A stretch of 64,000 nt of DNA from Kofleriaceae bacterium (lineage in GTDB: Bacteria; Myxococcota_A; Polyangia; Haliangiales; Haliangiaceae). The position numbers and the translations under genes are program-made. The DNA is taken from assembly GCA_965215005.1 (NCBI GenBank), contig CBDCCZ010000014.1, positions 128,001 through 192,000 on the forward strand, written 5' to 3'. Shown piece after piece: positions 22,680 through 38,555 of the stretch. Every line of letters starts with the position of its first letter. Within the stretch, counting starts at the first letter, position 1. A model generated the notes under the pieces. That model did no database searches. It had not been told where the DNA came from and saw nothing but the letters and a program-made list of their open reading frames with translations.

Positions 22680-25600
22680 GTTCTCAACGCCTTTCGGCAT
22701 CACGGCGAGTACGACATGCAGCGTCACAGTGATATTCGACGCGGTAGGTTCGTGCTCAACGCCTTTCGGCATCCCGGCGAGTACGACACGGCTCTGGCTG
22801 GCAGTGAGCAAAGGGCATTGGCTGTGCTCAACGCGTTTCGGCATCACGGCGAGTACGACAGTGGGGCTACGACGGGGCAATGTCCGGATTTCTGGCGTGC
22901 TCAACGCCTTTCGGCATCACGGCGAGTACGACCATCTATCGGCTGGCTGAGTCTGGCTATCCGACGGTGCTCAACGCCTTTCGGCATCACGGCGAGTACG
23001 ACGTCGGGTAACCCGCACGGGCCTGCGACGCCCGCCTAGTGCTCAACGCCTTTCGGCATCACGGCAAGTACGACTTGAGAAGATCACCGAAGCGCGCATC
23101 CGCGGGCAGCTCGAGGGGGTGCTCAACGCCTTTCGGCATCACGGCGAGTACGACCTCCCTTGCCCGCACCGAAGCCCGCATTGGCTTTGTGCTCAACGCC
23201 TTTCGGCATCACGGCGAGTACGACGTAGCCGCAGCGGCGCCACTCGGCGACGATCGCGATGTGCTCAACGCCTTTCGGCATCACGGCGAGTACGACCCGA
23301 CCACCGCAAATGGAGCTCGCCGAGATTCGGGTGCTCAACGCCTTTCGGCATCACGGCGAGTACGACTTGTCGACGACGAGCGGCTGGCCCGCACCGCCGA
23401 GTGCTCAACGCCTTTCGGCATCACGGCGAGTACGACTCCAGGTAGCTTTGCCCGCTAGGGTCGAGGCCTATGATGGTGCTCAACGCCTTTCGGTATCACG
23501 GCGAGTACGACTTTCTTCGTCGTCGTCGTACTGGCATTTGTCCCTCTCAGTGCTCAACGCCTTTCGGCATCACGGCGAGTACGACCCGTAAAGAGTCGCC
23601 CCCCGCCGTTTCCGACCGTGTGCTCAACGCCTTTCGGCATCACGGCGAGTACGACTTGCCGACCTCGGCTCGGCGCGAAAATCCAGCCTCGTGCTCAACG
23701 CCTTTCGGCATCACGGCGAGTACGACGCGCTCTCGCGCTACGAGGTCGACAGACGCGTGAAGGTGCTCAACGCCTTTCGGCATCACGGCGAGTACGACCC
23801 GTAAAGAGTCGCCCCCCGCCGTTTCCGACCGTGTGCTCAACGCCTTTCGGCATCACGGCGAGTACGACTTGCCGACCTCGGCTCGGCGCGAAAATCCAGC
23901 CTCGTGCTCAACGCCTTTCGGCATCACGGCGAGTACGACGCGCTCTCGCGCTACGAGGTCGACAGACGCGTGAAGGTGCTCAACGCCTTTCGGCATCACG
24001 GCGAGTACGACTCACACCGTACTTCACACCGTCGCCAAGCTACACGAGTGCTCAACGCCTTTCGGCATCACGGCGAGTACGACACTTAGACCCGCAGGGC
24101 TCATCGCTGGACTGGTATGTGCTCAACGCCTTTCGGCATCACGGCGAGTACGACTGCCGCGACGGGGCGCGGGCCGCGGTGCCCAGCACATACAGTGCTC
24201 AACGCCTTTCGGCATCACGGCGAGTACGACCACCCAGACCTACTCACATCACGAGGGAGGATCTGATGTGCTCAACGCCTTTCGGCATCACGGCGAGTAC
24301 GACCCGGCGTCTTCGACCGTAATCGTCGCCTGTGCGCGGTGCTCAACGCCTTTCGGCATCACGGCGAGTACGACAATTTCCCCCTGCCGCTTGTCGCGAC
24401 CCCCCTCTAGTGCTCAACGCCTTTCGGCATCACGGCGAGTACGACTTCCGACCCACTCTCCGGATTCTCGATAAATCTGGCGTGCTCAACGCCTTTCGGC
24501 ATCACGGCGAGTACGACGCCGTCGCTCGGTCGCGTGACCGAGACGCGGTACACCGTGCTCAACGCCTTTCGGCATCACGGCGAGTACGACGCTCGAAACG
24601 ACGGCGATCCTCGTCGTCTCGATCGGTGTGCTCAACGCCTTTCGGCATCACGGCGAGTACGACATTGCGCGACCTGCTGCGCGAGCGTAGACACCTCCTG
24701 TGCTCAACGCCTTTCGGCATCACGGCGAGTACGACCGTCAAGTACTGAACCGGGCGACGGGTATTGTGGGCTCGTGCTCAACGCCTTTCGGCATCACGGC
24801 GAGTACGAACATGAACCCGGTTCGCCATCTGAGATCAACCGTACGCGTGCTCAACGCCTTTCGGCATCACGGCGAGTACGACTGGAGACCGCTGCCCACC
24901 ACTCGCCGGCGTCCCCGTGTGCTCAACGCCTTTCGGCATCACGGCGAGTACGACCTGTCTCGCAGATCGCGAGCTCCCAGTGTCTATCCGTGCTCAACGC
25001 CTTTCGGCATCACGGCGAGTACGACCAGACTTCGTGACGCAGCTCTTCCGGCCTCAATAGTGCTCAACGCCTTTCGGCATCACGGCGAGTACGACGTCTT
25101 GCAGAGCCGCCGCAGCGCCGTCTTGCGATAGTGCTCAACGCCTTTCGGCATCACGGCGAGTACGACGGCTCTACGGCGAAGCCGACGACTTTGACGAACT
25201 CGTCGTGCTCAACGCCTTTCGGCATCACGGCGAGTACGACCCCTGCATTGTGTTTGACATAACGGTCTCTTCGACGTGCTCAACGCCATTCGGCATCACG
25301 GCGAGTACGACGACGTCATGCTCGCGCCCTGGATCGTCAATGCCGGTGTGCTCAACGCCTTTCGGCATCACGGCGAGTACGACGGGAGCCGGCGCTCGTA
25401 GAGCCCGCGTAGCTGGTCGTGTGCTCAACGCCTTTCGGCATCACGGCGAGTACGACGTGTACGGAATCGTGATCAGAATTTCAGCCCCGCGTGCTCAACG
25501 CCTTTCGGCATCACGGCGAGTACGACCGTAAGTGCGACCGCACCGATCAGGATTCCCGCGGCGTGCTCAACGCCTTTCGGCATCACGGCGAGTACGACTC

Positions 25601-28407
25601 ATCAAGCACAGCCAACGTGGCATCGCTCGCCCAGTGCTCAACGCCTTTCGGCATCACGGCGAGTACGACTAGTAGCGATTTCCGCTTGCGTCGTGCGCAC
25701 GACTTGCGGTGCTCAACGCCTTTCGGCATCACGGCGAGTACGACCGCTCGCCCGCCCGACTGGCAAAGCAAGCTGAAGTTGTGCTCAACGCCTTTCGGCA
25801 TCACGGCGAGCACGACGCGACCCGGACAACTGGCGGGGCGTTCTCAAGTAGTGCTCAACGCCTTTCGGCATCACGGCGAGTACGACCTTTTTTTTCCCAC
25901 TCCATGCCTTTGCCTTAGAAGTGCTCAACGCCTTTCGGCATCACGGCGAGTACGACTTGTGGCCGGCGCGATGGAAGACGCGAATCTCGACGTGCTCAAC
26001 GCCTTTCGGCATCACGGCGAGTACGACCATTTACGGCAGCCTCGATGCGGCCGATTTCGGCGAGGTGCTCAACGCCTTTCGGCATCACGGCGAGTACGAC
26101 CGTTTCCGCCGGCCGATCCAGTGGATCCCGCAGGTGCTCAACGCCTTTCGGCATCACGGCGAGTACGACGCTGTCTCGCAGATTGCGGACTCCCGGCGTC
26201 TATCCGTGCTCAACGCCTTTCGGCATCACGGCGAGTACGACACGTCGGCGCCTCCGCGCAGCATCCGGTCATCGTCGGTGCTCAACGCCTTTCGGCATCA
26301 CGGCGAGTACGACCGGCTCGCGGCGTCTGGTGCTTCGTCCAAGATCCGGACGTGCTCAACGCCTTTCGGCATCACGGCGAGTACGACCGGGTCAGCGGTG
26401 GGCGTCGACGCAGACACCACGTCGCGTGCTCAACGCCTTTCGGCATCACGGCGAGTACGACCAAGTCCGCTGGAATTGCCCTCGTCGATCCCACTGGTGC
26501 TCAACGCCTTTCGGCATCACGGCGAGTACGACACGTCGGCGCCTCCGCGCAGCATCCGGTCATCGTCGGTGCTCAACGCCTTTCGGCATCACGGCGAGTA
26601 CGACCGGCTCGCGGCGTCTGGTGCTTCGTCCAAGATCCGGACGTGCTCAACGCCTTTCGGCATCACGGCGAGTACGACCGGGGTCAGCGGTGGGCGTCGA
26701 CGCAGACACCACGTCGCGTGCTCAACGCCTTTCGGCATCACGGCGAGTACGACCAAGTCCGCTGGAATTGCCCTCGTCGATCCCACTGGTGCTCAACGCC
26801 TTTCGGCATCACGGCGAGTACGACGCTCTAGTTCTAGCGGCAGCGCATCGGGTGTTTGACGTGCTCAACGCCTTTCGGCATCACGGCGAGTACGACCTTT
26901 CAAGGGGACGGTTAGCTTAAGGCCAGGGTTGGTGTGCTCAACGCCTTTCGGCATCACGGCGAGTACGACGGGCGAATCACCACGGCCTCGGAGCGCGTAG
27001 TGCGTGCTCAACGCCTTTCGGCATCACGGCGAGTACGACACTTGAGCGTAGTAGGAGAGCGTAATGCCGAATTATGGTGCTCAACGCCTTTCGGCATCAC
27101 GGCGAGTACGACAATGGCCTTCTCAAAGGCGTGCGTGCAGCGTCCACAGTGCTCAACGCCTTTCGGCATCACGGCGAGTACGACTAGCGATACGCCTTGG
27201 GTGCGATGGCCAGAAACCCGCGGTGCTCAACGCCTTTCGGCATCACGGCGAGTACGACGGTTCGTAAGCTCTCTACCGTCGTGCGGAATTCGTGCTCAAC
27301 GCCTTTCGGCATCACGGCGAGTGCGACCCACTCGCCCGAATCGCGATAGATCTGTCCGTTGGTGCTCAACGCCTTTCGGCATCACGGCGAGTACGACGGG
27401 GGAGAGATGAGAATGTACCGGACTCGGCGTGCGCGTGCTCAACGCCTTTCGGCATCACGGCGAGTACGACCGGGTCTTGCACCCCGGCGGCGCCGGGGGA
27501 CGATCAGTGCTCAACGCCTTTCGGCATCACGGCGAGTACGACGTGAAAGTCTCCCCCCAAGTCGCGCGCTCCCCAAGTGCTCAACGCCTTTCGGCATCAC
27601 GGCGAGTACGACCGCGACGCTCAGTCCCGGCGGCGAGCTCCTGATCCGTGCTCAACGCCTTTCGGCATCACGGCGAGTACGACCGTGCGGACCAGACTTT
27701 GCCGGGACCGATCGCAAGGTGCTCAACGCCTTTCGGCATCACGGCGAGTACGACTATCCCGTATAATGCAGGCGACGCATCGCTGTTGAAGTGCTCAACG
27801 CCTTTCGGCATCACGGCGAGTACGACCATAGACGCCTCGTCGCAGGCGGGTCTCGGCGAAGAGTGCTCAACGCCTTTCGGCATCACGGCGAGTACGACGG
27901 CGGCGCGGCGTCGAGCTTGGCGATCCTCGGTTTGTGCTCAACGCCTTTCGGCATCACGGCGAGTACGACCTTACGGAAGTGAAGCAGACACCACTAAGGT
28001 CCTATTGTGCTCAACGCCTTTCGGCATCACGGCGAGTACGACCGTGCAGGAGGCCGAAATCCTGGCAGAGGACCTCGACGTGCTCAACGCCTTTCGGCAT
28101 CACGGCGAGTACGACGCCCGCGCGAGCGCGGATATCGACGACGGACTGATCGCGTGCTCAACGCCTTTCGGCATCACGGCGAGTACGACGACTCCACGTG
28201 CCGAAAAATCGGCGAGGTGGGACTGGTGCTCAACGCCTTTCGGCATCACGGCGAGTACGACTCCCGACCCACTCTCCGGATTCTCGATAGATCTGCGGTG
28301 CTCAACGCCTTTCGGCATCACGGCGAGTACGACGCCGCTTACACGATGACCTGGGGCGACTCTGTGATCCCGTGCTCAACGCCTTTCGGCATCACGGCGA
28401 GTACGAC
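22680..28407 (-). CRISPR. CRISPR array, 80 repeats / 79 spacers (manual count); 36-bp repeat GTCGTACTCGCCGTGATGCCGAAAGGCGTTGAGCAC (minus strand)
   Basis: Regular repeats with 33-44 nt spacers; degenerate repeats cluster at the 22.7-kb (trailer) end; leader and cas genes at the other end. Confidence 0.99.
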
Positions 28408-28959: not shown

Positions 28960-30606
28960 TCACCGTATTCTGAGGGTTGCGAATAGCCCAGCTTCGCCCG
29001 ACCACTCCTTTTCAAGGAGCCGGGCTTCAAGCTCCATCATACGCGCGTATGAGAGGCTGTATTGAAGAGCTGGATGACGGTACTCGTCGTGCTTTCGTCG
29101 CTCGTAGACCTCGATGAGCTTCTTGCGCCCAGTGTCTGACAGCCAGACTTGTGCTCCGGTCACCGTGAAGTCATCGTCCGGGTGGAACGTTCGGCGGTTT
29201 ACAGCACCGAGAATGGCCATATCGACGAGCGGGACGCGAAACAGTTCCATCAGGTCGAGGGCGAGCGGGTAGCTCGCAGACCGCGGCTGGTGTAGGAAGC
29301 CTAGCGCAGGCTCGAGTCCTACCCGCACAATCGCACTATAGACGTCTCGCTAGAGCAGGCCGTAGGCGAACGAGAGCAGTGAATTAAATCGGTCAAGGGG
29401 CGGCCGCTTAGAGCGGCCCTGAGGAACCATGGACTCCCCGGCATCTGGCGAGACGAGAGCTCTAAGCGAATCGAAGTAGGCTCGCGCACCCTGGCCTTCG
29501 TAGCCCATTAACTGCTCGCGGCTATCTCCTTGGAATGCGCCCCGGACGGCGGCCCTAAGCCGCACTAAGCTCGTCGAGCAGCTCGTGCGAATCGTCGGCT
29601 TGCCGCGGCTGGCCCGCATGATGTGCTGGATCTGCATTTGAATCTTCGCGATGACCAGCCGACGCGCCAGTTCGAGCGAGGTGGCCTCGTTTCGCAAGCC
29701 TTCGAACTGCCGGATGCGACGCTGAACACCGCCGGACTGCCCCGCAAACGAACCAATGAAGCTTCCGGACGCGGCGATGAAGTGCACCGGGATATCGGCG
29801 CTAGCACAGAGTCGCAGTGCTTGGGTCGTAATCTGCGCGAAGCCGTGGAGCACCACGTCGCTAACCTCGCGGGTGCCGATGACGGTCTTCTTCCCGTCGC
29901 GGGGCACGACAACGAGTGTCTCGCCCGAGCGCGTGACGCGGGCACCGGAGGACACCACATGCACCGACCGACGTTCGGTATCTATGGGAAAGAGACGCAC
30001 TGGAGTGGGCTTAGATTCCGTGTCGGGCACCTGCGCGAAGCGAGCCTCCTCCGGAAGGCACACTGGCGCGAGGGAGCACCTCACACATCGCCGTTCGTGC
30101 ACCGTGACGGGGGGACGTTCGGTCGAGACGCGGAGCTGACCGGCACGTTCGACCACCCGTATGACCTGACCACGCAGGTTCTCGTCGATGGGGACCCGAA
30201 GCGTAAGATTATCCTTATGATAACGAACACGAGCTTCGGGAATGGATGACGAGGTGTGTTCCTCGAGTAGCATGGCGTAAGCTGCAAGCTGGATCGCGTC
30301 GCTATCCCATGGCTGCGCCTCGCCGTTGATCGTGCGCGAGCATCGCCCGCGCTTGTGCTCAATGGGAAACATCGCTCCGTCACGCCGCCTCACGGCGTCC
30401 ATTCGCCCGCGAATACCAAGCACCTCTGACTCCAGCGTCAGATTGGTGATCTCCGCTGGCTCGTCAAGCTCGGCATGAAGGCGGCGCCCCGCCCAAACCG
30501 CTTCGTCAGCGACGCGAATCTCCTCGACCTCCTCGAGATAGAAGAGACGCTCGCAGTACGCGAGCGCGTGCAGAGCCATTACGCGGATTGTCGGCGAGGC
30601 TGTCAT
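28960..30606 (-). pseudogene. cas1: Cas4-Cas1 fusion with an in-frame TAG at 29350-29352
   Basis: Cas4 motifs YCERLFY, IEHKRG, CxxCSLxxxC; Cas1 motifs GYEG, NSLLSFAY, GFLH, LALDLMELFR; both ORF halves are in the same frame. Confidence 0.9.
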
Positions 30607-31304
30607 GTCTCCTCCACGAGGCCGGGGTTCTGCGGGACCCACGCCCACGCTTCGGCAGGAATCGAGGCAGATTCCGCCAGGGGAGCAAAGACGGCGGACG
30701 TGGTGCGGCTGCTGTCGAGGCGGTCGATGCCGATCGTAAGCCTGCTAGAGCCTTTCCGGGGCGGATCGCCGGCGCCAATGGGTGCATACCAGCGACAGCG
30801 CGGAGGCTCATTGAGGACATCCGCGCGATCGAGGAGGAGGTTGTTGTCGCCTGCATGTGGCAAGCCGTAGCGAGGCGTCTCCAGCTCGCCGGCCAGCCCG
30901 CGCCCCACGCGCGCCAGCACCTCGTCCGCGCCTCGCGCAGCGATGACGCAATCCAAGCCCACCAAGAGCTCGCGGCGAGCGGGCGCGATCCAATACTTGG
31001 CCCCATGGGATCGCGCCTTGTACTCCTTGCCGGAGTTCCCGACGGGATAGGTGTGTAGCTGCTGGTACAGCGACGTCGTGGAGGCTTCCGCCACCGCACC
31101 GACGGCGATCTCCAGGGCTGGTGCGTCGGATCGAACCGTCGTGATAGTTTTTCGCTCCGGACCCCGCGTGTCGATGCCCGCTAGGTTGAGGAGCAGGCCC
31201 CAAGCCGCCGAAGGCGGTATGACCGGGCTCGTCGCGCGGTAAACGCCAGCCTGCAGCCATCGAAACGCGGCAAAAGGAGCGCGAACGCGTATGCACAGAT
31301 TCAT
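30603..31304 (-). CDS. cas5: Cas5 (type I-MYXAN, DevS/Cmx5)
   Basis: VRAPFAAFR, PPSAAWGLLLNLAG, YQQLHTYPVG, RYGLP. Confidence 0.9.
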   Translation of the reverse strand: MNLCIRVRAPFAAFRWLQAGVYRATSPVIPPSAAWGLLLNLAGIDTRGPERKTITTVRSDAPALEIAVGAVAEASTTSLYQQLHTYPVGNSGKEYKARSHGAKYWIAPARRELLVGLDCVIAARGADEVLARVGRGLAGELETPRYGLPHAGDNNLLLDRADVLNEPPRCRWYAPIGAGDPPRKGSSRLTIGIDRLDSSRTTSAVFAPLAESASIPAEAWAWVPQNPGLVEET

Positions 31305-32203
31305 GCGGACTCGCCCCCGAGCAGTCGGTCGGCGGCCATCATCAGCGCGCGCTGCGGGTTGTCCTCGAACGTCACGCCCGTAGCACCCATCTCCTTCTTC
31401 AGCTCGGCAGACATCGAGCGTGAGACCTCGCCACCAACCAGAAACTCGCTGCCGGGAAGGTCTTTGTTGAGGACGCGACGCAATTCGGGGAATTGTCCCT
31501 GGAGATTGAACCCATAGCTTTCGTAGCCGGCCACAAGGCTGCGGGTCACGCGAATGACGATGCTCCGCGGTGCCATCTCGAAGAGGCTTCTTGCATGACC
31601 GCCAGCGACGTTCGAAAGCTCTCCAATGGCCTGGAGCAGCTTTCTCGTCCAGGCCGGACCATTCCCTTGAGCACAGTCGGAGCCAGCGAGCGCGAACGGA
31701 TATTGAAATGCCGTGTAGGCGGTCTCGCGGTGAATCAGCGCCGAGTTGACTGCGTTCTTCCATGGGCTTCCGCCGGCGTTCTGCGGAGATTGATGGAAGG
31801 TCGCGTCAAAGCGGTAGGCCTCCAATGCAACAGCCAGGTTCATGCGCAGGACGCTGTCGCGCTTGGCGGGGCGCTTAGCCTTCTTCTTCATCTCCTTGGA
31901 GTCGGCGACCATGTACCCAAAGAGAAAGTCGTCTGCGTACTTCGACGCGTCCGGAAAGTCTTTGAACTCGACGGCGAGCTGATCTTCGTTGTGGAGACGG
32001 GTGCGATTGGCGGGCAAGTCATAGGCCAAGAGAATCTCCCGCAGCGCGTTGCGCATGGACTCCGGGCTGATGACAGGATATTCATGACCGTCCTTGCTGA
32101 TCTTCTGAATGACGGTTCGGTTCTCTTCGCTCTCTCCTCGATAGTTGGAGCTGGGAGCGGCGTACGTGAGTACAGTCGCGAACAAATTTGGGTGGGCGGT
32201 CAT
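31301..32203 (-). CDS. cas7: Cas7 (DevR/Cst2)
   Basis: SNYRGESEEN, ISPESMRNALRE, DDFLFGYM, GGHARSLFE; GGAGG RBS before ATG 32203. Confidence 0.9.
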   Translation of the reverse strand: MTAHPNLFATVLTYAAPSSNYRGESEENRTVIQKISKDGHEYPVISPESMRNALREILLAYDLPANRTRLHNEDQLAVEFKDFPDASKYADDFLFGYMVADSKEMKKKAKRPAKRDSVLRMNLAVALEAYRFDATFHQSPQNAGGSPWKNAVNSALIHRETAYTAFQYPFALAGSDCAQGNGPAWTRKLLQAIGELSNVAGGHARSLFEMAPRSIVIRVTRSLVAGYESYGFNLQGQFPELRRVLNKDLPGSEFLVGGEVSRSMSAELKKEMGATGVTFEDNPQRALMMAADRLLGGESA

Positions 32204-32241
32204 GCGTTGTTCCTCCAGGAGTTGAATTTCATTGCGGTCAC

Positions 32242-33819
32242 TCATGCGCGAGCGCTCAACGCCAACAACGTGAGCGTTCGGATCTCGTCCGGATCCGACA
32301 TCAGCTTTTTCGTGAGCGCCACGTAGCCGGCTTCGCCGCGGCGCTGCGGAACCGAACAGAGGGTGCCGGCGAAGTACTCGATGAAATCGGCACCGGTACG
32401 ACTTCGAATCGCTAAGAACGCATCTTTCGCGATCTTCTCCCGCTTGTCGCTAAAGTCTCGTTGCTTGCGCTCGTCTCCCGCCACCTGCTCCCAAGACAAG
32501 CCGTGCTTGCTGGAGACCCTTCGCGAGAGAAAGGTGCCTACGATGCGATACACGATCTCCTCAGCCTCGATTCCGGCCGCTCCGTCGTTGAGCTCATCAC
32601 TCATATTGGTCTCCAATCCCGTTAAAGCTTCACGCGCATCCCGACGAAAGGAATTGCGCCCCAGCGTCTGCTCATAGCCCGTCGTGCACAGCATGTGCGT
32701 GAACGCGCTAAACCAAGGCTTCTCTTGCAGCAAAGCTCGCAGTCGAGCCTGGCGGAACCGAGCGTCTCGATAGGCGCTGCGAATCCGCGTGTATTCATCG
32801 ACGATGTGGCCCGGCTCGACACGCGCATGGGCCAGGATCCTCACGTTGTTGCCGACCTTCAGCAGATGCAGCACATCGACGCCGAGGACGAGATCACTCG
32901 TCCGCTGTGCGCCGGTACGCTGCTCAAGGCGAGCTCGTAACTGACGAAGCATGTCGAGCCCACTTTCTTCGACAATATCGATCAAGGCGTCGCGGGGCCG
33001 GTAGGCCACGATCTCAGCACCGCGCTCGCGAAGCAAGCCGGGCAACTCTCGGCAGAACATATCGAGAGTCGACACATCCGGGATCGCCAAGGCGAAGCCG
33101 TGAAACTCGCGCTTGCCGTCGTTGTCGACGACGTTCGGCACGTAGATGGTGACCACGAACGGCCAGAAATGGAGTAGGAAGAGAAAACGATTTCGGTCTT
33201 TCATGGGCACGTTGTCGGCCGTCGTCGCCATGGCACCGATGAAGTACGTGCTCGGCAGATCGCTGGCTCCATCGGGTTGGCTCAGCGCCGTCCATGTTTC
33301 TTCCGCGTCCGTCGCTGGCGTACCGTTGGCTCGCGCCTCGTAGGGAGCGCGCTGCGCGGGGATGCCGCGAAGCACACTCCAAACCGTGTCCCGCCACAGC
33401 TTCGTCCACCTGCCCTGCTCGCCCGTCGGGTCGTGCTCCAAGAGAAACGCGCCGCGAGGCACAATCTTGGGATAGTAGAAGACGGTCTTCCGCTTCACCT
33501 TGCCGCGCCTGTCGGTCTCCTCGACCTCGACCTCGCGGAGCGGCGGAATCACTGCTTTCTTCTTGTCCTTCCTGAGTTTTGACTCCGCCACCTCTTCCTT
33601 GGAGGCGGCGTAGACGTGGTCGAAGAGCTCTTCCAGGCCAGGCCGGTCGAGGCGAATGACGGCCGTGTGGGCCCCGAGGTCCACCAGCTCGGCGATCCCT
33701 TTGCGCTCCCCGGGCTGTCTTTCGAGCCACTGGAGCATGATCACGAGCCCCGCAAGCCCGGCTCGGTGTTGCGAAGACGGGAGCTCGGCCAGCTCGTAAT
33801 TTAAAGTGACTGCAGTCAT
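32242..33819 (-). CDS. cas8: Cas8 large subunit (Cmx8/DevT)
   Basis: YELAELPSSQHRAGLAGL, FLLHFWPFV, YFAGTLCSVPQ, TLTLLALSA; position in operon. Confidence 0.88.
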   Translation of the reverse strand: MTAVTLNYELAELPSSQHRAGLAGLVIMLQWLERQPGERKGIAELVDLGAHTAVIRLDRPGLEELFDHVYAASKEEVAESKLRKDKKKAVIPPLREVEVEETDRRGKVKRKTVFYYPKIVPRGAFLLEHDPTGEQGRWTKLWRDTVWSVLRGIPAQRAPYEARANGTPATDAEETWTALSQPDGASDLPSTYFIGAMATTADNVPMKDRNRFLFLLHFWPFVVTIYVPNVVDNDGKREFHGFALAIPDVSTLDMFCRELPGLLRERGAEIVAYRPRDALIDIVEESGLDMLRQLRARLEQRTGAQRTSDLVLGVDVLHLLKVGNNVRILAHARVEPGHIVDEYTRIRSAYRDARFRQARLRALLQEKPWFSAFTHMLCTTGYEQTLGRNSFRRDAREALTGLETNMSDELNDGAAGIEAEEIVYRIVGTFLSRRVSSKHGLSWEQVAGDERKQRDFSDKREKIAKDAFLAIRSRTGADFIEYFAGTLCSVPQRRGEAGYVALTKKLMSDPDEIRTLTLLALSARA

Positions 33820-36143
33820 CAGACCTCCGTGCCTTGGAAACCCAACCAGGCGTCATACTGCGCAGCTGAAACGATCCCGAGATAGTGTGGCAACCAGCGC
33901 GGCCGCTCCTCCGCCCGCAACAGAAAGCGACGAGGCGCCGCGAGGACCAGGCCATCGATTGCTTGTCCGCCCGCTCTGAGCGCCTTGATCTGAACTAGAT
34001 CGGTATCAAGAACACTCGCAGCGAACTGGTCCGATTCTTCGCGCACGGAGCCCGGCGTCGCGTAGTAACCACTCTCGAGAAATCGTGCGCTACGTACGAG
34101 CTTCGCTTCATCGACCGAGAATGCCTGTAGCGCCTCGGCGAGCTGGCGCTGTGAAACCGCTGGGCCGGCGACAGCGGCAATGAACTCCCGTGCCTTCTCG
34201 AGCTGCTTGTCCTCATAAGGTCGTTGGCTGGGAGCCGGAATCACGACGATCTCCGCCCGAAAGTCTGGTCCGCGCGCCAAGTGCCGATTTGTTCGACCGA
34301 AGCGCTGAATCAACGCGGACGTGGGAGCCAGCTCAGTGATGAGGAGGTCGGCGTCGATGTCGAGACTCATCTCGCACACTTGCGTCGTCACGGCCAGCGC
34401 CGAGCGCGATACCTGCTGGAAAGCCGCGACGGTGTCCTGATGGGCTCGCTTACGGTCGCAGAGGCGGAAGCGGCTGTGATAGCAGAGCACGTCGGTGGAA
34501 AGCTCGCGCTTCAGGCGCGCTGCCCATGCCTGGGCCCGCGCTACCACGTTGACGACCATGAGCACTCGCCGGCCCCGAGCAAGTGCCTCACGCACTCTGG
34601 GTACGATTGCCTCGCAATCGTCCGCGTGCTCAATCTGATATCGGCAATGATGTTCTTTCTCCTCCAGGGCCACAAGCTCAACCCGGTCCTCAGACGACGG
34701 AAACATCTGCAGGCCACTGTCGAGCAGCTCTTGCTGCCGGCTACGAGGAAGCGTTGCCGTCATACAAAGAGCGGGCACGTCGAAACTCCGCAAGAAGTCG
34801 ATAAGCGTTTTGAAGAGGCGTTTGTCGTAGCTGTGAACCTCGTCGAAGATCACAACCGAGTCCGCCAATGCGGGCAGCAAGCAAAGGCTGTCGTAGCGGT
34901 GCTCCATGAAGGCGAGGAATTGGTCGACAGTGGCGCTGTAGTAGCGCTTCGACCACAAGCCGAGCGCGTAGAGCCGATCAGCGGCCTCATCGACGAGAAG
35001 CTTGTCCTCGACGCTCTCGGGCGGATTGGTAGCCATCTCCTGCAGCTCGTATCGAGCGGTACCGTGCACGAGCGCCGCGTCGGCTTCTGGCGCCCAGCCG
35101 ACGTAGTCCCGAAATCCTTCCGTTGCCGTCCCGCGAGTGGGGTAAAGGAAGACCACTCGACCGGCCGGCCTCTCAGCGAGCCGCTGCTGTGCCCAATTCC
35201 AAGCTGCCAGCGTCTTCCCAGCACCGCAGGCCGCGAGCAGAAGCACTCTCTCGCCGCGCTTTGCCACCTCCGTCTGAAATCGATCGAGTTGGATCGACTG
35301 CTTTCGACTCCTCTCGAGCTGCTCCAGTCGCGGCCGGATCACGTCGCGTTCGACCTCGATCGAGGTCGCTGGCTCGCGGTGAACGACCTCCTCGATCCAA
35401 TCCGGCAGCGAGTAGTCCTCGCGCACCAAGGCAGACGCAACCGAATCCGCGACAATCAAGCCAGCCTTGACGGCAAAGAGCAACCCACGACGGTTCGCTC
35501 GTTCGGAGGTGTACGGAGCTTGCAGCTCACGACGCAACGCGCGAGCCGAGCGCATTCCTTCGGTTAAGGCCGCAGACCAGGGCGAGCGCTCACTCCACGA
35601 ATCGGGCCAGGTCACGACTAGCGTCGGGAGATTTGCGACATGAGCGATTCGGCGAAAGGTCGATGTCACCTGAGCATGATCGAAGCGCAGCCGAACCCGC
35701 CGAGCGCGGCGTGACTGCCCCCAACGCCACCGCTCGTCCTCCTCTGATGCCTTGAGATGATGTGACAGCACTGCCGCCGTGACGACCTCGAGATCAATGG
35801 CCGCATTCGCGGCGAGCCAACCGCGGACCTCGGGGAGGTGAAGAACCAGGGCGCTGATGTGCTCGTGCCGCAAGCTCTGCCTGGAGTCTGGCCTGCCCGA
35901 GATCGCCGCTTGGAACTCATCATTGGCCTTGCCGATATCGTGAAGAAGCGCCGCCACCCGCAAGTTCAGCAGGAACCGCGCCCGGTCATCGTCGCTGAGA
36001 CGGAAGAAGCGACAGAACGCCTCACCCCAGCGGCCATCGAGACGAAACACCCTCTGAGCCGCCTCCTCCGTATCGAGAAGATGTTTCTCGAGAGAGAGCG
36101 CATCGCGGCCAGTGCGCCGGCTCTTGGCGAACAGCGACGCCAT
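33819..36143 (-). CDS. cas3: Cas3 HD nuclease-helicase
   Basis: HDIGK, ACGAGKT, DEVH, TAT, HSRF, QRFGR. Confidence 0.95.
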   Translation of the reverse strand: MASLFAKSRRTGRDALSLEKHLLDTEEAAQRVFRLDGRWGEAFCRFFRLSDDDRARFLLNLRVAALLHDIGKANDEFQAAISGRPDSRQSLRHEHISALVLHLPEVRGWLAANAAIDLEVVTAAVLSHHLKASEEDERWRWGQSRRARRVRLRFDHAQVTSTFRRIAHVANLPTLVVTWPDSWSERSPWSAALTEGMRSARALRRELQAPYTSERANRRGLLFAVKAGLIVADSVASALVREDYSLPDWIEEVVHREPATSIEVERDVIRPRLEQLERSRKQSIQLDRFQTEVAKRGERVLLLAACGAGKTLAAWNWAQQRLAERPAGRVVFLYPTRGTATEGFRDYVGWAPEADAALVHGTARYELQEMATNPPESVEDKLLVDEAADRLYALGLWSKRYYSATVDQFLAFMEHRYDSLCLLPALADSVVIFDEVHSYDKRLFKTLIDFLRSFDVPALCMTATLPRSRQQELLDSGLQMFPSSEDRVELVALEEKEHHCRYQIEHADDCEAIVPRVREALARGRRVLMVVNVVARAQAWAARLKRELSTDVLCYHSRFRLCDRKRAHQDTVAAFQQVSRSALAVTTQVCEMSLDIDADLLITELAPTSALIQRFGRTNRHLARGPDFRAEIVVIPAPSQRPYEDKQLEKAREFIAAVAGPAVSQRQLAEALQAFSVDEAKLVRSARFLESGYYATPGSVREESDQFAASVLDTDLVQIKALRAGGQAIDGLVLAAPRRFLLRAEERPRWLPHYLGIVSAAQYDAWLGFQGTEV

Positions 36144-36147
36144 ACCG

Positions 36148-36771
36148 TCATCCAAGAGAGACTCTCCGCGGCGGTGGCACGAACAGGCCTGCGCCCATCC
36201 GCCGCCGGCCACCGAGCCCCGCGCTCTGCGTCGCTAGGGACGCACTTGCTTCCAAGTGCCCCAAAGCCACAGCGAAGCCGACAACGACTTTGTCTTTGAT
36301 GCGCATCACCCGCCGCGGGCCCACCGCGACCTCTATGCGCTCCGGGTCCTGCCCAAGATCGGGAATGTTTGCCAGCTGCCGACGCAGAGAATGCAAGAAC
36401 GGCTCTGGTTCGCATGCGCCCTTGATGGTGACGAAGCGAGCTCGCAGCGACACCGACGGGATAAGCGGGAAGATGCGCGGTGGTTCAAGCCTAATGCGCT
36501 GACCGCCAACCTCGATCGTTTGATCAGTGAGTGGGAGAACCGTCGCGATCACCGAGTTTGGAACGCGCAGTTTGACGTGAGATTTCGGCGTTAACGCCAG
36601 CACGCCTGCCTCCGTCCTCTGCCCGAGTATTGGATGCACGCCCCAATCTCGTTGTGCGTGAAGCTCCGGCAATGCTCGCGACAACGAAGAAAACAGCGAG
36701 TATCCGTGGTCGAGCGGTACCAAGCGACCGCGCGCAGGAAACGCTAGATCGACATAAACAGCGGAGCTCAT
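36148..36771 (-). CDS. cas6: Cas6 (Cmx6)
   Basis: PLDHGYSLF and C-terminal GLGGRRRMGAGLF. Confidence 0.93.
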   Translation of the reverse strand: MSSAVYVDLAFPARGRLVPLDHGYSLFSSLSRALPELHAQRDWGVHPILGQRTEAGVLALTPKSHVKLRVPNSVIATVLPLTDQTIEVGGQRIRLEPPRIFPLIPSVSLRARFVTIKGACEPEPFLHSLRRQLANIPDLGQDPERIEVAVGPRRVMRIKDKVVVGFAVALGHLEASASLATQSAGLGGRRRMGAGLFVPPPRRVSLG

Positions 36772-36926
36772 CTCGATTCTCCCCCCTCATGGAAACGAAA
36801 CTGCCGATGGTGAGCACGCGTCGAGCATGCTGACTGCCGTGCTCCAAGCGTCGTGAAACAGGAGCGTCAACGATCGATGATTCGACGGTACCGCCCCCGC
36901 TTAGCCGTCGAGAAACTGGTGTGCCA

Positions 36927-37029
36927 GCGCCCCCGCGTCTCCGGCATCAACGCGAGTGAGTGGCTCGTTGGCAGGGCGCACGACTAGAGCTGAATGCTCA
37001 ACGCCGGAACGACAAGGCTTGCAGCGTCG
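36927..37029 (-). ncRNA. putative CRISPR-like regulatory RNA (degenerate repeat-spacer-repeat mini-array)
   Basis: Repeat-like ends GGCGTTGAGCAT and ACTCGCGTTGATGCCG flank a spacer of about 31 nt that matches an ATG-flanked site at 37091-37109. Confidence 0.7.
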
Positions 37030-37442
37030 TCGCGACCATCGGGTCCACGCAGTGACGCTGACACCAACCAGAACTAGCACGCGAAGATTTGCACTACCAG
37101 TGCTGACATAATTTTTCTTCGAAAGACAATAATGCGCACCTCGAGTTCCCCCCTGATCATCCGGCTCGCGACCAGTCGCCCCGATGACTCCAGATCAGAT
37201 CCGACGCTCTCAGCTCCCTGCGCGATCGAAACGAGACCAGTGGATCCGCCACGAGCACCGAGCGTATGCGGATTGACCTGAGAGCGCTCCGGGAGTGCTG
37301 CCACGCTGCATGAGATTGCTTTGAAGCGTTGGCTGATGAGTTTCTGTTCTTGAAGTGGCAGCTGGGAACGAGCAGCGGATCGCCTCGCACGAGCTGCGGC
37401 GCTGAGTGAGGTGTGGCGCTGCGTCGCTGCGCGCCAGGCCCG

Positions 37443-38555
37443 TCATGGCGGTGGAATGGGCAGCTCGGGGCGCGGTGGCAGGGCGCCGGCGATGATGAGG
37501 GCGTCTTCTTCTTCGGGGGCGAAGTCGCGGCGGCCGAAGCGGATCATGGTGAGAAAGAAGCTCACGGCCAGGGGGCCGACGATGAGGCCGATGCCGCCGA
37601 GCATGAGCATGCCGCCGATGAGGCTGAAGAAGACGACGACGCCGTGAATCTGCACGCCGCCGCGTATCAAGATTGGCTTTAGCAGGTTGTCGACCAAGCC
37701 GACGACGACCGCGGCCCACACGGCGAGAAAGATCGCCTGCCACGTCAAGCCCAGCAGCAGCAGCAAGCCGCACAGCGGATACGCCACGATCGCAGTGCCC
37801 ACGGACGGCAAAAAGGCGGCGAAGAAGGTCAGCAAGCCGAAGAACAGTGGATTGGGCACCGAGGCGATGACGTAGCCAATGGTTGCGACACCCCCTTGCG
37901 CGGCGGCGGTGATGACGCTGGAGCCGACGACCGATCGCGAGACGTGACGAAAGCGAACCAGGAGCTCGGTGGTTTGGCCGTTGGGAAGCGGCGAGATTTT
38001 CTCGAGCCAGACGAGCAATCTCTTGCCGTCTAGGAGCATGGCGTAGAAGGCGACGAGGAACATGCCGAGGTCCAGGAGCAACTGCGAGAGGATGCCGAGA
38101 ATGTCGCCAATTACACTCGCGGCCACCATGCCGCGCGCCGCCGCCTGTTGCGAGAGTCGCTGCGGATCGACCGGCAGTCGGCTGATGAGGTCTCGTAGCG
38201 GCTCCTCGAGGTGATCGGGAAGCTTGCCGGCTAGGGCGTTCAGCCCACCCTCCTGCAATGTCTCGCGCACGAAGGTGTAGGCGGCCAGTGCTTCGCGAAG
38301 CGCAATGGTGATGACGGCTGCGAACGGCAGTAGCAGCAGCAACACCACCGCAGTTGACATCAGCGCAGCCCCGAGCTTGTCGCGATTACCGAGCCACCCA
38401 CTGATGCGGTCGGTTGCGGGCTTGAGAATGCCTGCTAGCACAGCGGCGAGAAACAACGGCTCCCACAGCGGCCAAACCACCGCCAGAAAGAGGAGGATCG
38501 AGGCGGTAAGAAGTACCCCGTAGGCAACCCACGAGGTCCGGCTTTGCGTGCTCAC
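37443..38555 (-). CDS. AI-2E family transporter
   Basis: Multi-TM; PSVGTAIV, VDNLLKP, GLIVGP. Confidence 0.9.
   Translation of the reverse strand: MSTQSRTSWVAYGVLLTASILLFLAVVWPLWEPLFLAAVLAGILKPATDRISGWLGNRDKLGAALMSTAVVLLLLLPFAAVITIALREALAAYTFVRETLQEGGLNALAGKLPDHLEEPLRDLISRLPVDPQRLSQQAAARGMVAASVIGDILGILSQLLLDLGMFLVAFYAMLLDGKRLLVWLEKISPLPNGQTTELLVRFRHVSRSVVGSSVITAAAQGGVATIGYVIASVPNPLFFGLLTFFAAFLPSVGTAIVAYPLCGLLLLLGLTWQAIFLAVWAAVVVGLVDNLLKPILIRGGVQIHGVVVFFSLIGGMLMLGGIGLIVGPLAVSFFLTMIRFGRRDFAPEEEDALIIAGALPPRPELPIPPP

Follow-up and report, generated by a model that had tools for sequence, protein, structure and literature searches.

A putative CreR-type regulatory mini-array upstream of cas6 in a MYXAN-type I-B CRISPR-Cas locus from Myxococcota

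Introduction

Regulatory mini-arrays that lie upstream of cas6 and target the cas6 promoter region have been described for type I-B CRISPR-Cas systems (Shmakov et al. 2023, PMC10120712). In the CreR and CreA systems, the RNA from a degenerated mini-CRISPR guides the type I-B, I-E, or V-A effector to its own promoter by partial complementarity; the CreR circuit senses the load of crRNAs as well as anti-CRISPRs, and its autorepression was shown experimentally (10.1101/2023.03.10.532045). Between these two studies, self-repressing mini-arrays of this kind have been demonstrated experimentally for types I-B, I-E, I-F, and V-A (PMC10120712, 10.1101/2023.03.10.532045).

A related puzzle comes from the dev operon of Myxococcus xanthus. 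The proteins DevT, DevR, and DevS (homologues of Cas8, Cas7, and Cas5) repress this operon 10-20 fold, and if any one of the three is missing, then DevI is overproduced and sporulation is blocked (10.1101/2023.07.26.550624, 10.1101/415331, PMC6061681, PMC8616872). According to these accounts, how DevTRS autoregulates is unknown, there is no known matching spacer, and neither Cas3 nor Cas6 is required. One review on dev mentions a "distinct antisense RNA".

Here we describe a candidate regulatory mini-array in a 64,000-nt stretch of the genome of a Kofleriaceae bacterium (the window). As in the I-B mini-arrays of PMC10120712, a repeat-spacer-repeat unit with a degenerate distal repeat lies upstream of cas6, its pairing with a PAM-flanked site is partial and begins at the seed, and autorepression without cleavage is predicted. 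The window differs from those cases in that it belongs to the MYXAN branch and to Myxococcota, both of its repeats are far more degenerate, and its target lies upstream of the mini-array. The string "Myxococc" does not occur in the main text of PMC10120712, and two small supplements have no match to it; the full tables may list such loci. Similarly, Myxococcus is not mentioned in the main text of 10.1101/2023.03.10.532045.

In the haloarchaeal system as published, CreR lies between cas6 and cas8 and cas6 is unaffected, whereas the element in the window precedes cas6 and would control the whole operon. Also, CreR was tested experimentally, while the unit in the window is a candidate predicted from sequence. 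The locus shares its CRISPR repeat family, and the homologues of Cas8, Cas7, and Cas5, with dev of M. xanthus, but its large subunit is of the Cmx8 type and it lacks a devI-like gene. It is of the same subtype as the system of Synechocystis sp. PCC 6714, a Myxan I-B system (Cmx8/Cas8b) that is the source of the measured PAM that we use below. That system is cyanobacterial and was studied for interference and editing, and the published account does not, in the sections that describe it, mention a regulatory mini-array (PMC11096372).

Results

The CRISPR-Cas locus of the window

The minus strand of the window holds a complete type I-B (I-MYXAN) CRISPR-Cas locus, and all four of its signature proteins score above the curated cut-offs of NCBIfam. 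The genes are cas6 (cmx6), cas3, cmx8 (cas8b), cas7, cas5, a fusion of cas4 and cas1, and cas2, followed by the array:

36148..36771, minus strand: cas6 (Cmx6); TIGR02807, 177.3 bits against a cut-off of 98.85
33819..36212, minus strand: cas3 (HD nuclease and helicase); TIGR01587, 175.2 bits, and TIGR01596, 54.7 bits
32242..33819, minus strand: cas8b (Cmx8), the large Cascade subunit; TIGR04413, 578 bits against a cut-off of 150
31301..32245, minus strand: cas7 (Cst2/DevR family); TIGR02585, 73.5 bits against a cut-off of 72.75
30603..31300, minus strand: cas5 (Cmx5/DevS family), start approximate; TIGR02586, 112.8 bits against a cut-off of 111.5
28960..30648, minus strand: cas4-cas1 fusion, with one in-frame TAG at 29350-29352
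22680..28407, minus strand: CRISPR array with 80 repeats of 36 nt (71 of them identical) and 79 spacers of 33-44 nt

For cas5, the match to TIGR02586 covers residues 157-355 of the open reading frame (ORF) at 30603-31763. The TAG codon in cas4-cas1 falls inside a conserved stretch of Cas1, and the frame is uninterrupted in all of the related loci, so this is either a pseudogenised adaptation gene or an assembly error. We read the array in the direction of the cas genes because its variant repeats sit at the far end. Within the array, three repeat-spacer units are duplicated exactly at 23550-24011 (period 213, 2.2 copies, 100% match), and the spacers of this block have identical lists of matches to the organism's own genome, which we searched as 62 contigs (6.2 Mb).

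A degenerate mini-array upstream of cas6

Between cas6 and the next gene upstream, which encodes an AI-2E-family transporter (37443-38555, with its stop at 37443) and has the same orientation as cas6, there is a gap of 671 nt. On the minus strand of this gap, a degenerate repeat (psiR1) is followed by a 31-nt spacer (psiS) and by a second degenerate repeat (psiR2):

36994..37029, minus strand: psiR1, first degenerate repeat; retains the 3' hairpin strand and the handle, with a diverged 5' half
36963..36993, minus strand: psiS, pseudo-spacer of 31 nt, shorter than the spacers of the array (33-44 nt)
36920..36962, minus strand: psiR2, second degenerate repeat; retains the 5' part and the left hairpin arm, with an insertion in the loop region and a degenerate 3' end
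36839..36874, minus strand: a possible third repeat-like stretch, weak (19/36), with a handle-like end and no target for the sequence that follows it

A preliminary description of this DNA, made from the sequence, had reported two degenerate repeats here with a spacer of about 31 nt between them. All three elements are present, and both the length of the spacer and the ungapped identity of psiR2 to the array repeat (20/36) hold up, although the next best position for psiR2 in the 671-nt gap is nearly as good (19/36).

The similarity to the array repeat is concentrated next to psiS. In psiR1, a run of 11 bases reproduces exactly the best-conserved portion of the array repeat (the 3' strand of the hairpin and the handle), the last base of psiR1 being T instead of C, and this 11-mer is invariant in 22 of the 23 repeat types of the MYXAN repeat family. 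If psiR1 is folded as RNA, then a stem can still form with its 3' strand at the same positions as in the canonical repeat, but the hairpin is not the canonical one. As for psiR2, it agrees with the array repeat at 14 of 16 bases over repeat positions 6-21, in register right after psiS. By this alignment, what has been kept is what a mature crRNA requires: the 3' end of psiR1 and the 5' portion of psiR2.

Overall similarity is much weaker. We built a covariance model from the 23 repeats of the family. In a search of 3 kb, psiR1 was the top hit of 35, yet it scored just 7.9 bits (E = 0.46), and psiR2 scored 5.5 bits (E = 1.7); neither appears among the hits with E ≤ 1 in 84 kb. Because the overall similarity is weak by this model, we identify the repeats by the exact handle of psiR1 and by the correct spacing. 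Furthermore, because the hairpin of psiR1 is non-canonical and psiR2 contains an insertion, Cas6 may not process them. Rfam has no match in 36600-37400. What we find outside the main array is thus a repeat-like, spacer, repeat-like unit that derives from the locus's own array repeat, with a resemblance that is weak by the covariance model. Taking this together with the target described below, we think it quite probable that 37029-36920 is a CreR-type regulatory mini-array of the type I-B (MYXAN) system.

The spacer matches an ATG-flanked site further upstream

The start of psiS resembles a site in an AT-rich part of the gap:

37091..37106, minus strand: target (protospacer-like) site, 13/16 identical to the start of psiS, with mismatches at positions 6, 9, and 12
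37107..37109, minus strand: 5'-ATG flank (the PAM position on the non-target strand), read directly from the sequence; the PAM was measured in a homologous Cascade
37075..37149, no strand assigned: AT-rich patch that holds the target and is presumed to be the promoter region (GC 0.40-0.42)
37074..37109, minus strand: predicted 11-codon ORF (MSALVVQIFAC), which starts at the ATG of the PAM

The target lies 113 nt upstream of psiS on the same strand. The match begins exactly at the handle/spacer junction of the guide, leaves the seed intact (positions 1-5 and 7-8), and does not extend past position 16. The match, its three mismatches, and the absence of any similarity of note beyond position 16 had been noticed in the preliminary description, as had the ATG and the short ORF, and we found each of them as reported at 37106-37091, 37109-37107, and in the ORF.

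To judge whether such a match might arise by chance, we considered all 12,414,776 positions of the genome on both strands. Besides psiS itself, 42 sites match the start of psiS at 13/16 or better. If positions 6 and 12 are masked, just two sites reach 13/14, which are the target and a site on contig C40 whose flank is GCG. Within 500 nt on either strand, about 0.007 sites would be expected by chance (unmasked), before the PAM is counted. On these counts, the match between psiS and its target is real and non-random. Two other handle-like starts in the 671-nt gap (giving second and third pseudo-spacers) have no partner above 11/15 and so no targets. Between the target and psiR1, at 37057-37067 on the minus strand, is an 11-base string that is the same, by eye, as the first 11 bases of the target in a genome of the genus Myxococcus (G561, see below). 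This string is preceded by TGG rather than ATG. The bases at 37061-37057 also equal the seed of psiS at positions 1-5, with a flank of GTG.

The ATG flank is as expected for this kind of Cascade. For the I-B (Myxan, Cmx8) Cascade of Synechocystis sp. PCC 6714, AYG is reported as the best PAM, ATA is a close second, and the cryo-EM structure contains ATG (PMC11096372), which bears out the earlier statement that ATG is the reported PAM of I-B2/MYXAN-type Cascade. The same ATG is found at the analogous targets of other loci that we describe below (L057, L078, G561/G578/G558, and L119). In E. coli, a PAM and at least 5 seed pairs are enough for binding by Cascade, while interference needs at least 18-25 bp (PMC5904413). 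The pairing of psiS ends at position 16, which falls short of this type I-E threshold of 18-25 bp or more.

The main array says little about the PAM. Two of its 79 spacers match the organism's own genome in full, and their flanks are not AYG at positions -3 to -1, which is uninformative as to the PAM. These perfectly self-matching spacers, at 23155-23188 and 27827-27862, correspond to genome sites C17:91096-91129 and C7:228-263; the latter is inside a gene that is conserved in several genomes of the family, and the flanks of both read A-N-G one base further out. Against 138 genomes of the family, the 79 spacers gave merely partial matches to conserved genes, which do not define a PAM, and against phage records they gave no match. 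The arrays of two Myxococcus loci had imperfect matches alone to phages, with flanks of GCG and ACG, and these do not define a PAM either.

The preliminary description had also placed the target in an AT-rich, promoter-like patch. The patch (37075-37149) is indeed the most AT-rich part of the gap, as the GC content elsewhere in 36600-37500 is 0.52-0.78, but the cas strand yielded no promoter: a scan of 36600-37500 for sigma-70 promoters identified a single match, which is on the plus strand (37103-37130) and overlaps the target. Similar consensus scans did not call any promoter at the targets of L057, L078, or L119, where by eye there is promoter-like sequence directed at cas6. Consensus promoter scans are weak guides in Myxococcota. 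As to the 11-codon ORF, it is rich in codons that end in A, which is unusual for this GC-rich genome.

Units of the same design in other MYXAN-repeat loci

Reference genomes yielded 37 loci whose Cas6 is related, to which we added other loci of the phylum and of the genus Myxococcus, along with 7 from metagenomes. Neither the genomes nor the metagenomes include a close relative: the best identity for Cas6 is 60% (56% among the metagenomes). The element is absent from the closest loci (L051-L055, with Cas6 at 52-60% identity, and metagenome loci at 56% or less). Because the closest loci, at no more than 60% identity in Cas6, lack the element, its conservation cannot be demonstrated.

A blind scan of both strands was then run over 52 loci, covering 2.5 kb of sequence upstream of each cas6 (114,395 nt in total). 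It found 53 handle-like sites at 10/12 or better. At five of the 53, the adjacent sequence has a partner at 13/15 or better (with every sixth position masked). Four of these partners are flanked by ATG, namely those in the window, in L057 (a metagenome-assembled genome, or MAG, from Myxococcota), in L078 (a Thiosymbion MAG), and in L109 (a Myxococcus-genus genome, G561); the fifth, in L074 from Sorangium, is flanked by ATA. For comparison, at the 12 sites whose best partner is 12/15, ATG flanks none of the 17 partners listed and ATA flanks one. Furthermore, a search of six metagenome loci revealed a sixth lineage (L119) with a divergently oriented mini-array and a target, flanked by ATG, that lies about 120 nt ahead of cas6. 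The design thus recurs in five other lineages, of which four have ATG (three of these with a near-intact handle) and Sorangium has ATA.

The units in other lineages are analogous to the window's unit and not homologous to it. In L057, L078, and L119, the hairpin of the repeat is well preserved on one or both sides. Across the loci, the targets are on either strand, 113-316 nt from the spacer, and lie in sequence that is promoter-like or AT-rich by eye. Five ATG flanks, each belonging to a match that starts exactly at the handle/spacer junction, compare with an expectation of 1/64 per site, and this implies that neither chance nor simple decay explains the pattern, although we still give some small credence to a relic, as discussed below.

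Three other candidates were rejected. The 13/15 match in L115 (flank CAA) appears to be a coding repeat; a hit to the covariance model in L007 is coding sequence without a target; and a handle-like string in L102 is inside a RAMP-like gene.

Five Sorangium loci have a reverse-oriented repeat-spacer-repeat unit 230-750 nt upstream of cas6, which is full in L068 and L074 and partial in L071, L073, and L085. Other sequence takes the place of the first repeat and of half of the spacer in three of these loci, and L074 alone has a detectable partner site (13/15, with the ATA flank). In L078, about 38 nt upstream of the start of the match to cas6, a 21-base stretch matches the repeat hairpin at 15 of 18 scored positions and overlaps what appears to be the true start codon of cas6. 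This stretch could be a binding site for Cas6 on its own mRNA, or it could be due to chance.

Mismatches between spacers and targets

In the seven spacer/target pairs that we first compared (from the window, L057, L078, L074, G561, G578, and G558), all 16 of the mismatches within positions 1-16 are at multiples of 3, and six of the seven have a mismatch at position 9. L119 departs from this pattern, with mismatches at 2 and 13. Cascade flips out every sixth base. The preliminary description invoked these flipped bases to explain the mismatches, which works for positions 6 and 12 and does not work for position 9, nor for position 15 in other pairs. The pattern hints at a 3-nt rule of mismatch tolerance in this Cascade, or at a deliberate brake on the R-loop. 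(A 2017 paper in Cell reportedly described a 3-nt periodicity in binding by the type I-E Cascade.)

We also considered whether the target and the spacer might encode the same peptide, starting from the ATG. This would fit the window and Myxococcus, but it fails for L057 and L078, in which the differences are non-synonymous and stop codons occur after 6-7 codons. Also, in G578 and G558, indels break the frame that leads to a 40-codon ORF, which argues against a coding explanation.

A mini-array in Myxococcus loci that resemble dev

The locus in G561 has a layout like that of the dev operon, with cas6, cas3, a divergent large subunit, cas7, cas4-cas1, and two arrays. Upstream of its cas6 is an insert of about 415 nt that has no counterpart in three other genomes of the genus. 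The insert contains a 40-codon ORF, which is at the position of devI and has the published length of devI, and then the mini-array, which is followed by cas6. Compared with L104, the loci L105, L106, and L107 have the same cas6 and the same upstream gene without the ~415-nt insert (40-codon ORF, target, and mini-array), which fits a published statement that Pdev and devI are missing from many isolates.

The handle of the G561 mini-array matches at 10/12, and its psiR2 scores 18.9 bits with the covariance model (E = 0.031 in 84 kb). At 17/18, the spacer matches a site that has an ATG flank and lies just before the 40-codon ORF; the runner-up in 19.5 kb reaches 13/18. Two more genomes of the genus, G578 and G558, carry this region at 77% and 71% identity, and across the three genomes the spacer and the target agree at 15-17 of 18 positions. 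In a three-way alignment, examined by eye, 18 of the 21 columns for the PAM and target positions 1-18 are invariant, as are 28 of the 30 columns for the handle and spacer positions 1-18, while the gap before the target is invariant in roughly a third of its columns. In this alignment, the handle, the start of the spacer, and the target are conserved islands in the three Myxococcus-genus genomes.

This suggests that the Myxococcus mini-array and its target might offer a mechanism for the autoregulation by DevTRS. We did not find a paper that links dev to a mini-array, and our search of the literature likewise agreed with the earlier remark that no such regulator had been described for a myxobacterial dev-like locus. 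The reported dispensability of Cas6 counts against a Cas6-processed guide in dev. M. xanthus has two cas6 genes that are reported to be interchangeable, and this could be the reason that deletion of a single one was without effect. As to whether hidden crRNA-like guides serve as autoregulators throughout the MYXAN-repeat I-B branch, the dev-type locus of Myxococcus included, we consider the chances to be about evenly balanced.

Discussion

We infer from sequence that the mini-array of the window is transcribed and processed, and that its product takes part in binding and repression. The most likely explanation of the element is that its guide makes Cascade bind without cutting and so represses Cascade's own operon. 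A promoter in or near the AT-rich patch would transcribe the mini-array together with cas6-cas3-cas8b-cas7-cas5. Cas6 would cut at psiR1 and psiR2 to yield a crRNA-like RNA with the usual 5' handle, and Cascade, once loaded with this RNA, would recognize the ATG-flanked site 113 nt upstream. The guide would pair across the seed (positions 1-5 and 7-8) and on to position 16; as pairing would end there, the R-loop would be incomplete and Cas3 would not be licensed. The bound Cascade would hinder the initiation of transcription or early elongation, so that more Cascade would lead to less cas mRNA and less guide. Such a loop would also sense how much Cascade is occupied by ordinary crRNAs or blocked by anti-CRISPRs, as in the published CreR circuits.

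The unit could instead be a relic that has no function. It might descend from a second array, or from a duplicate of a terminal unit, that took a spacer from the adjoining DNA and has decayed since then, in which case the 13/16 match plays no role. Both repeats are very degenerate, no close relative shows conservation, and the Sorangium loci hold units of the same kind that are partly eroded. Self-acquisition does occur at this locus, as two array spacers match the genome perfectly; and cas4-cas1 is broken, so the locus as a whole may be decaying, given the nonsense codon. Still, decay would not single out the handle, the seed, and the PAM for retention, nor would it explain why the three-part design with ATG recurs in further lineages (five, one of them with ATA) or why the islands in Myxococcus are conserved within a region of 71-77% identity. 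Overall, we view a relic as unlikely.

Other explanations accept that Cascade binds the target and differ as to what it represses. Besides the cas operon, or in its place, Cascade might hold down a small gene or RNA that begins at the target and is harmful, for example the ORF at 37109-37074, so that the loss of Cascade would be punished, as in CreTA. The target does overlap an ORF that starts at the ATG of the PAM and is rich in A-ending codons, and in the genus Myxococcus the target adjoins the 40-codon ORF at the position of devI; the block of sporulation by overproduced DevI follows the same logic as CreTA. But the 11-codon ORF is not preceded by a Shine-Dalgarno-like sequence of note, and in L057 and L078 the corresponding ATG opens ORFs of only 6-7 codons that are unrelated. 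The preliminary description had raised the option of a hidden toxin, which was an overstatement, as its sole basis was the 11-codon ORF; we doubt that the window contains such a safeguard, and rate it below the relic. We see even less reason to believe that Cascade blocks a divergent promoter on the plus strand (37103-37130), or just read-through from the upstream transporter gene. The sole consensus-like promoter in 36600-37500 is that one and it overlaps the target, and the AI-2E-family transporter gene (37443-38555) is oriented like cas6. However, there is no plausible gene downstream of the plus-strand match, consensus scans are weak guides in this phylum, and the targets of L057, L078, and L119 are, by eye, in promoter-like sequence that points towards cas6. 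This last reading is very improbable.

Autorepression by Cascade therefore remains our preferred explanation of the mini-array. The preliminary description had proposed just such an autoregulator, and the proposal gains from the PAM, the full match to the seed, the uniqueness of the target in the genome, and the recurrence of the design in MYXAN-repeat loci. This kind of circuit is already published; the window is a further example, from Myxococcota and of MYXAN type. Such units are invisible to tools that find arrays, so recognizing them should be useful for annotation. The natural targets also back ATG as the PAM that is used across the MYXAN branch.

The implications are broadest for Myxococcus. 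Autorepression of dev by homologues of Cas8, Cas7, and Cas5 has been known for decades. If an RNA guides DevT, DevR, and DevS, then this would account for the 10-20 fold negative autoregulation by DevTRS, and dev would be a CreTA-like addiction module, with DevI as the factor that punishes loss. The mini-array in dev-like loci turns this into a concrete, testable hypothesis.
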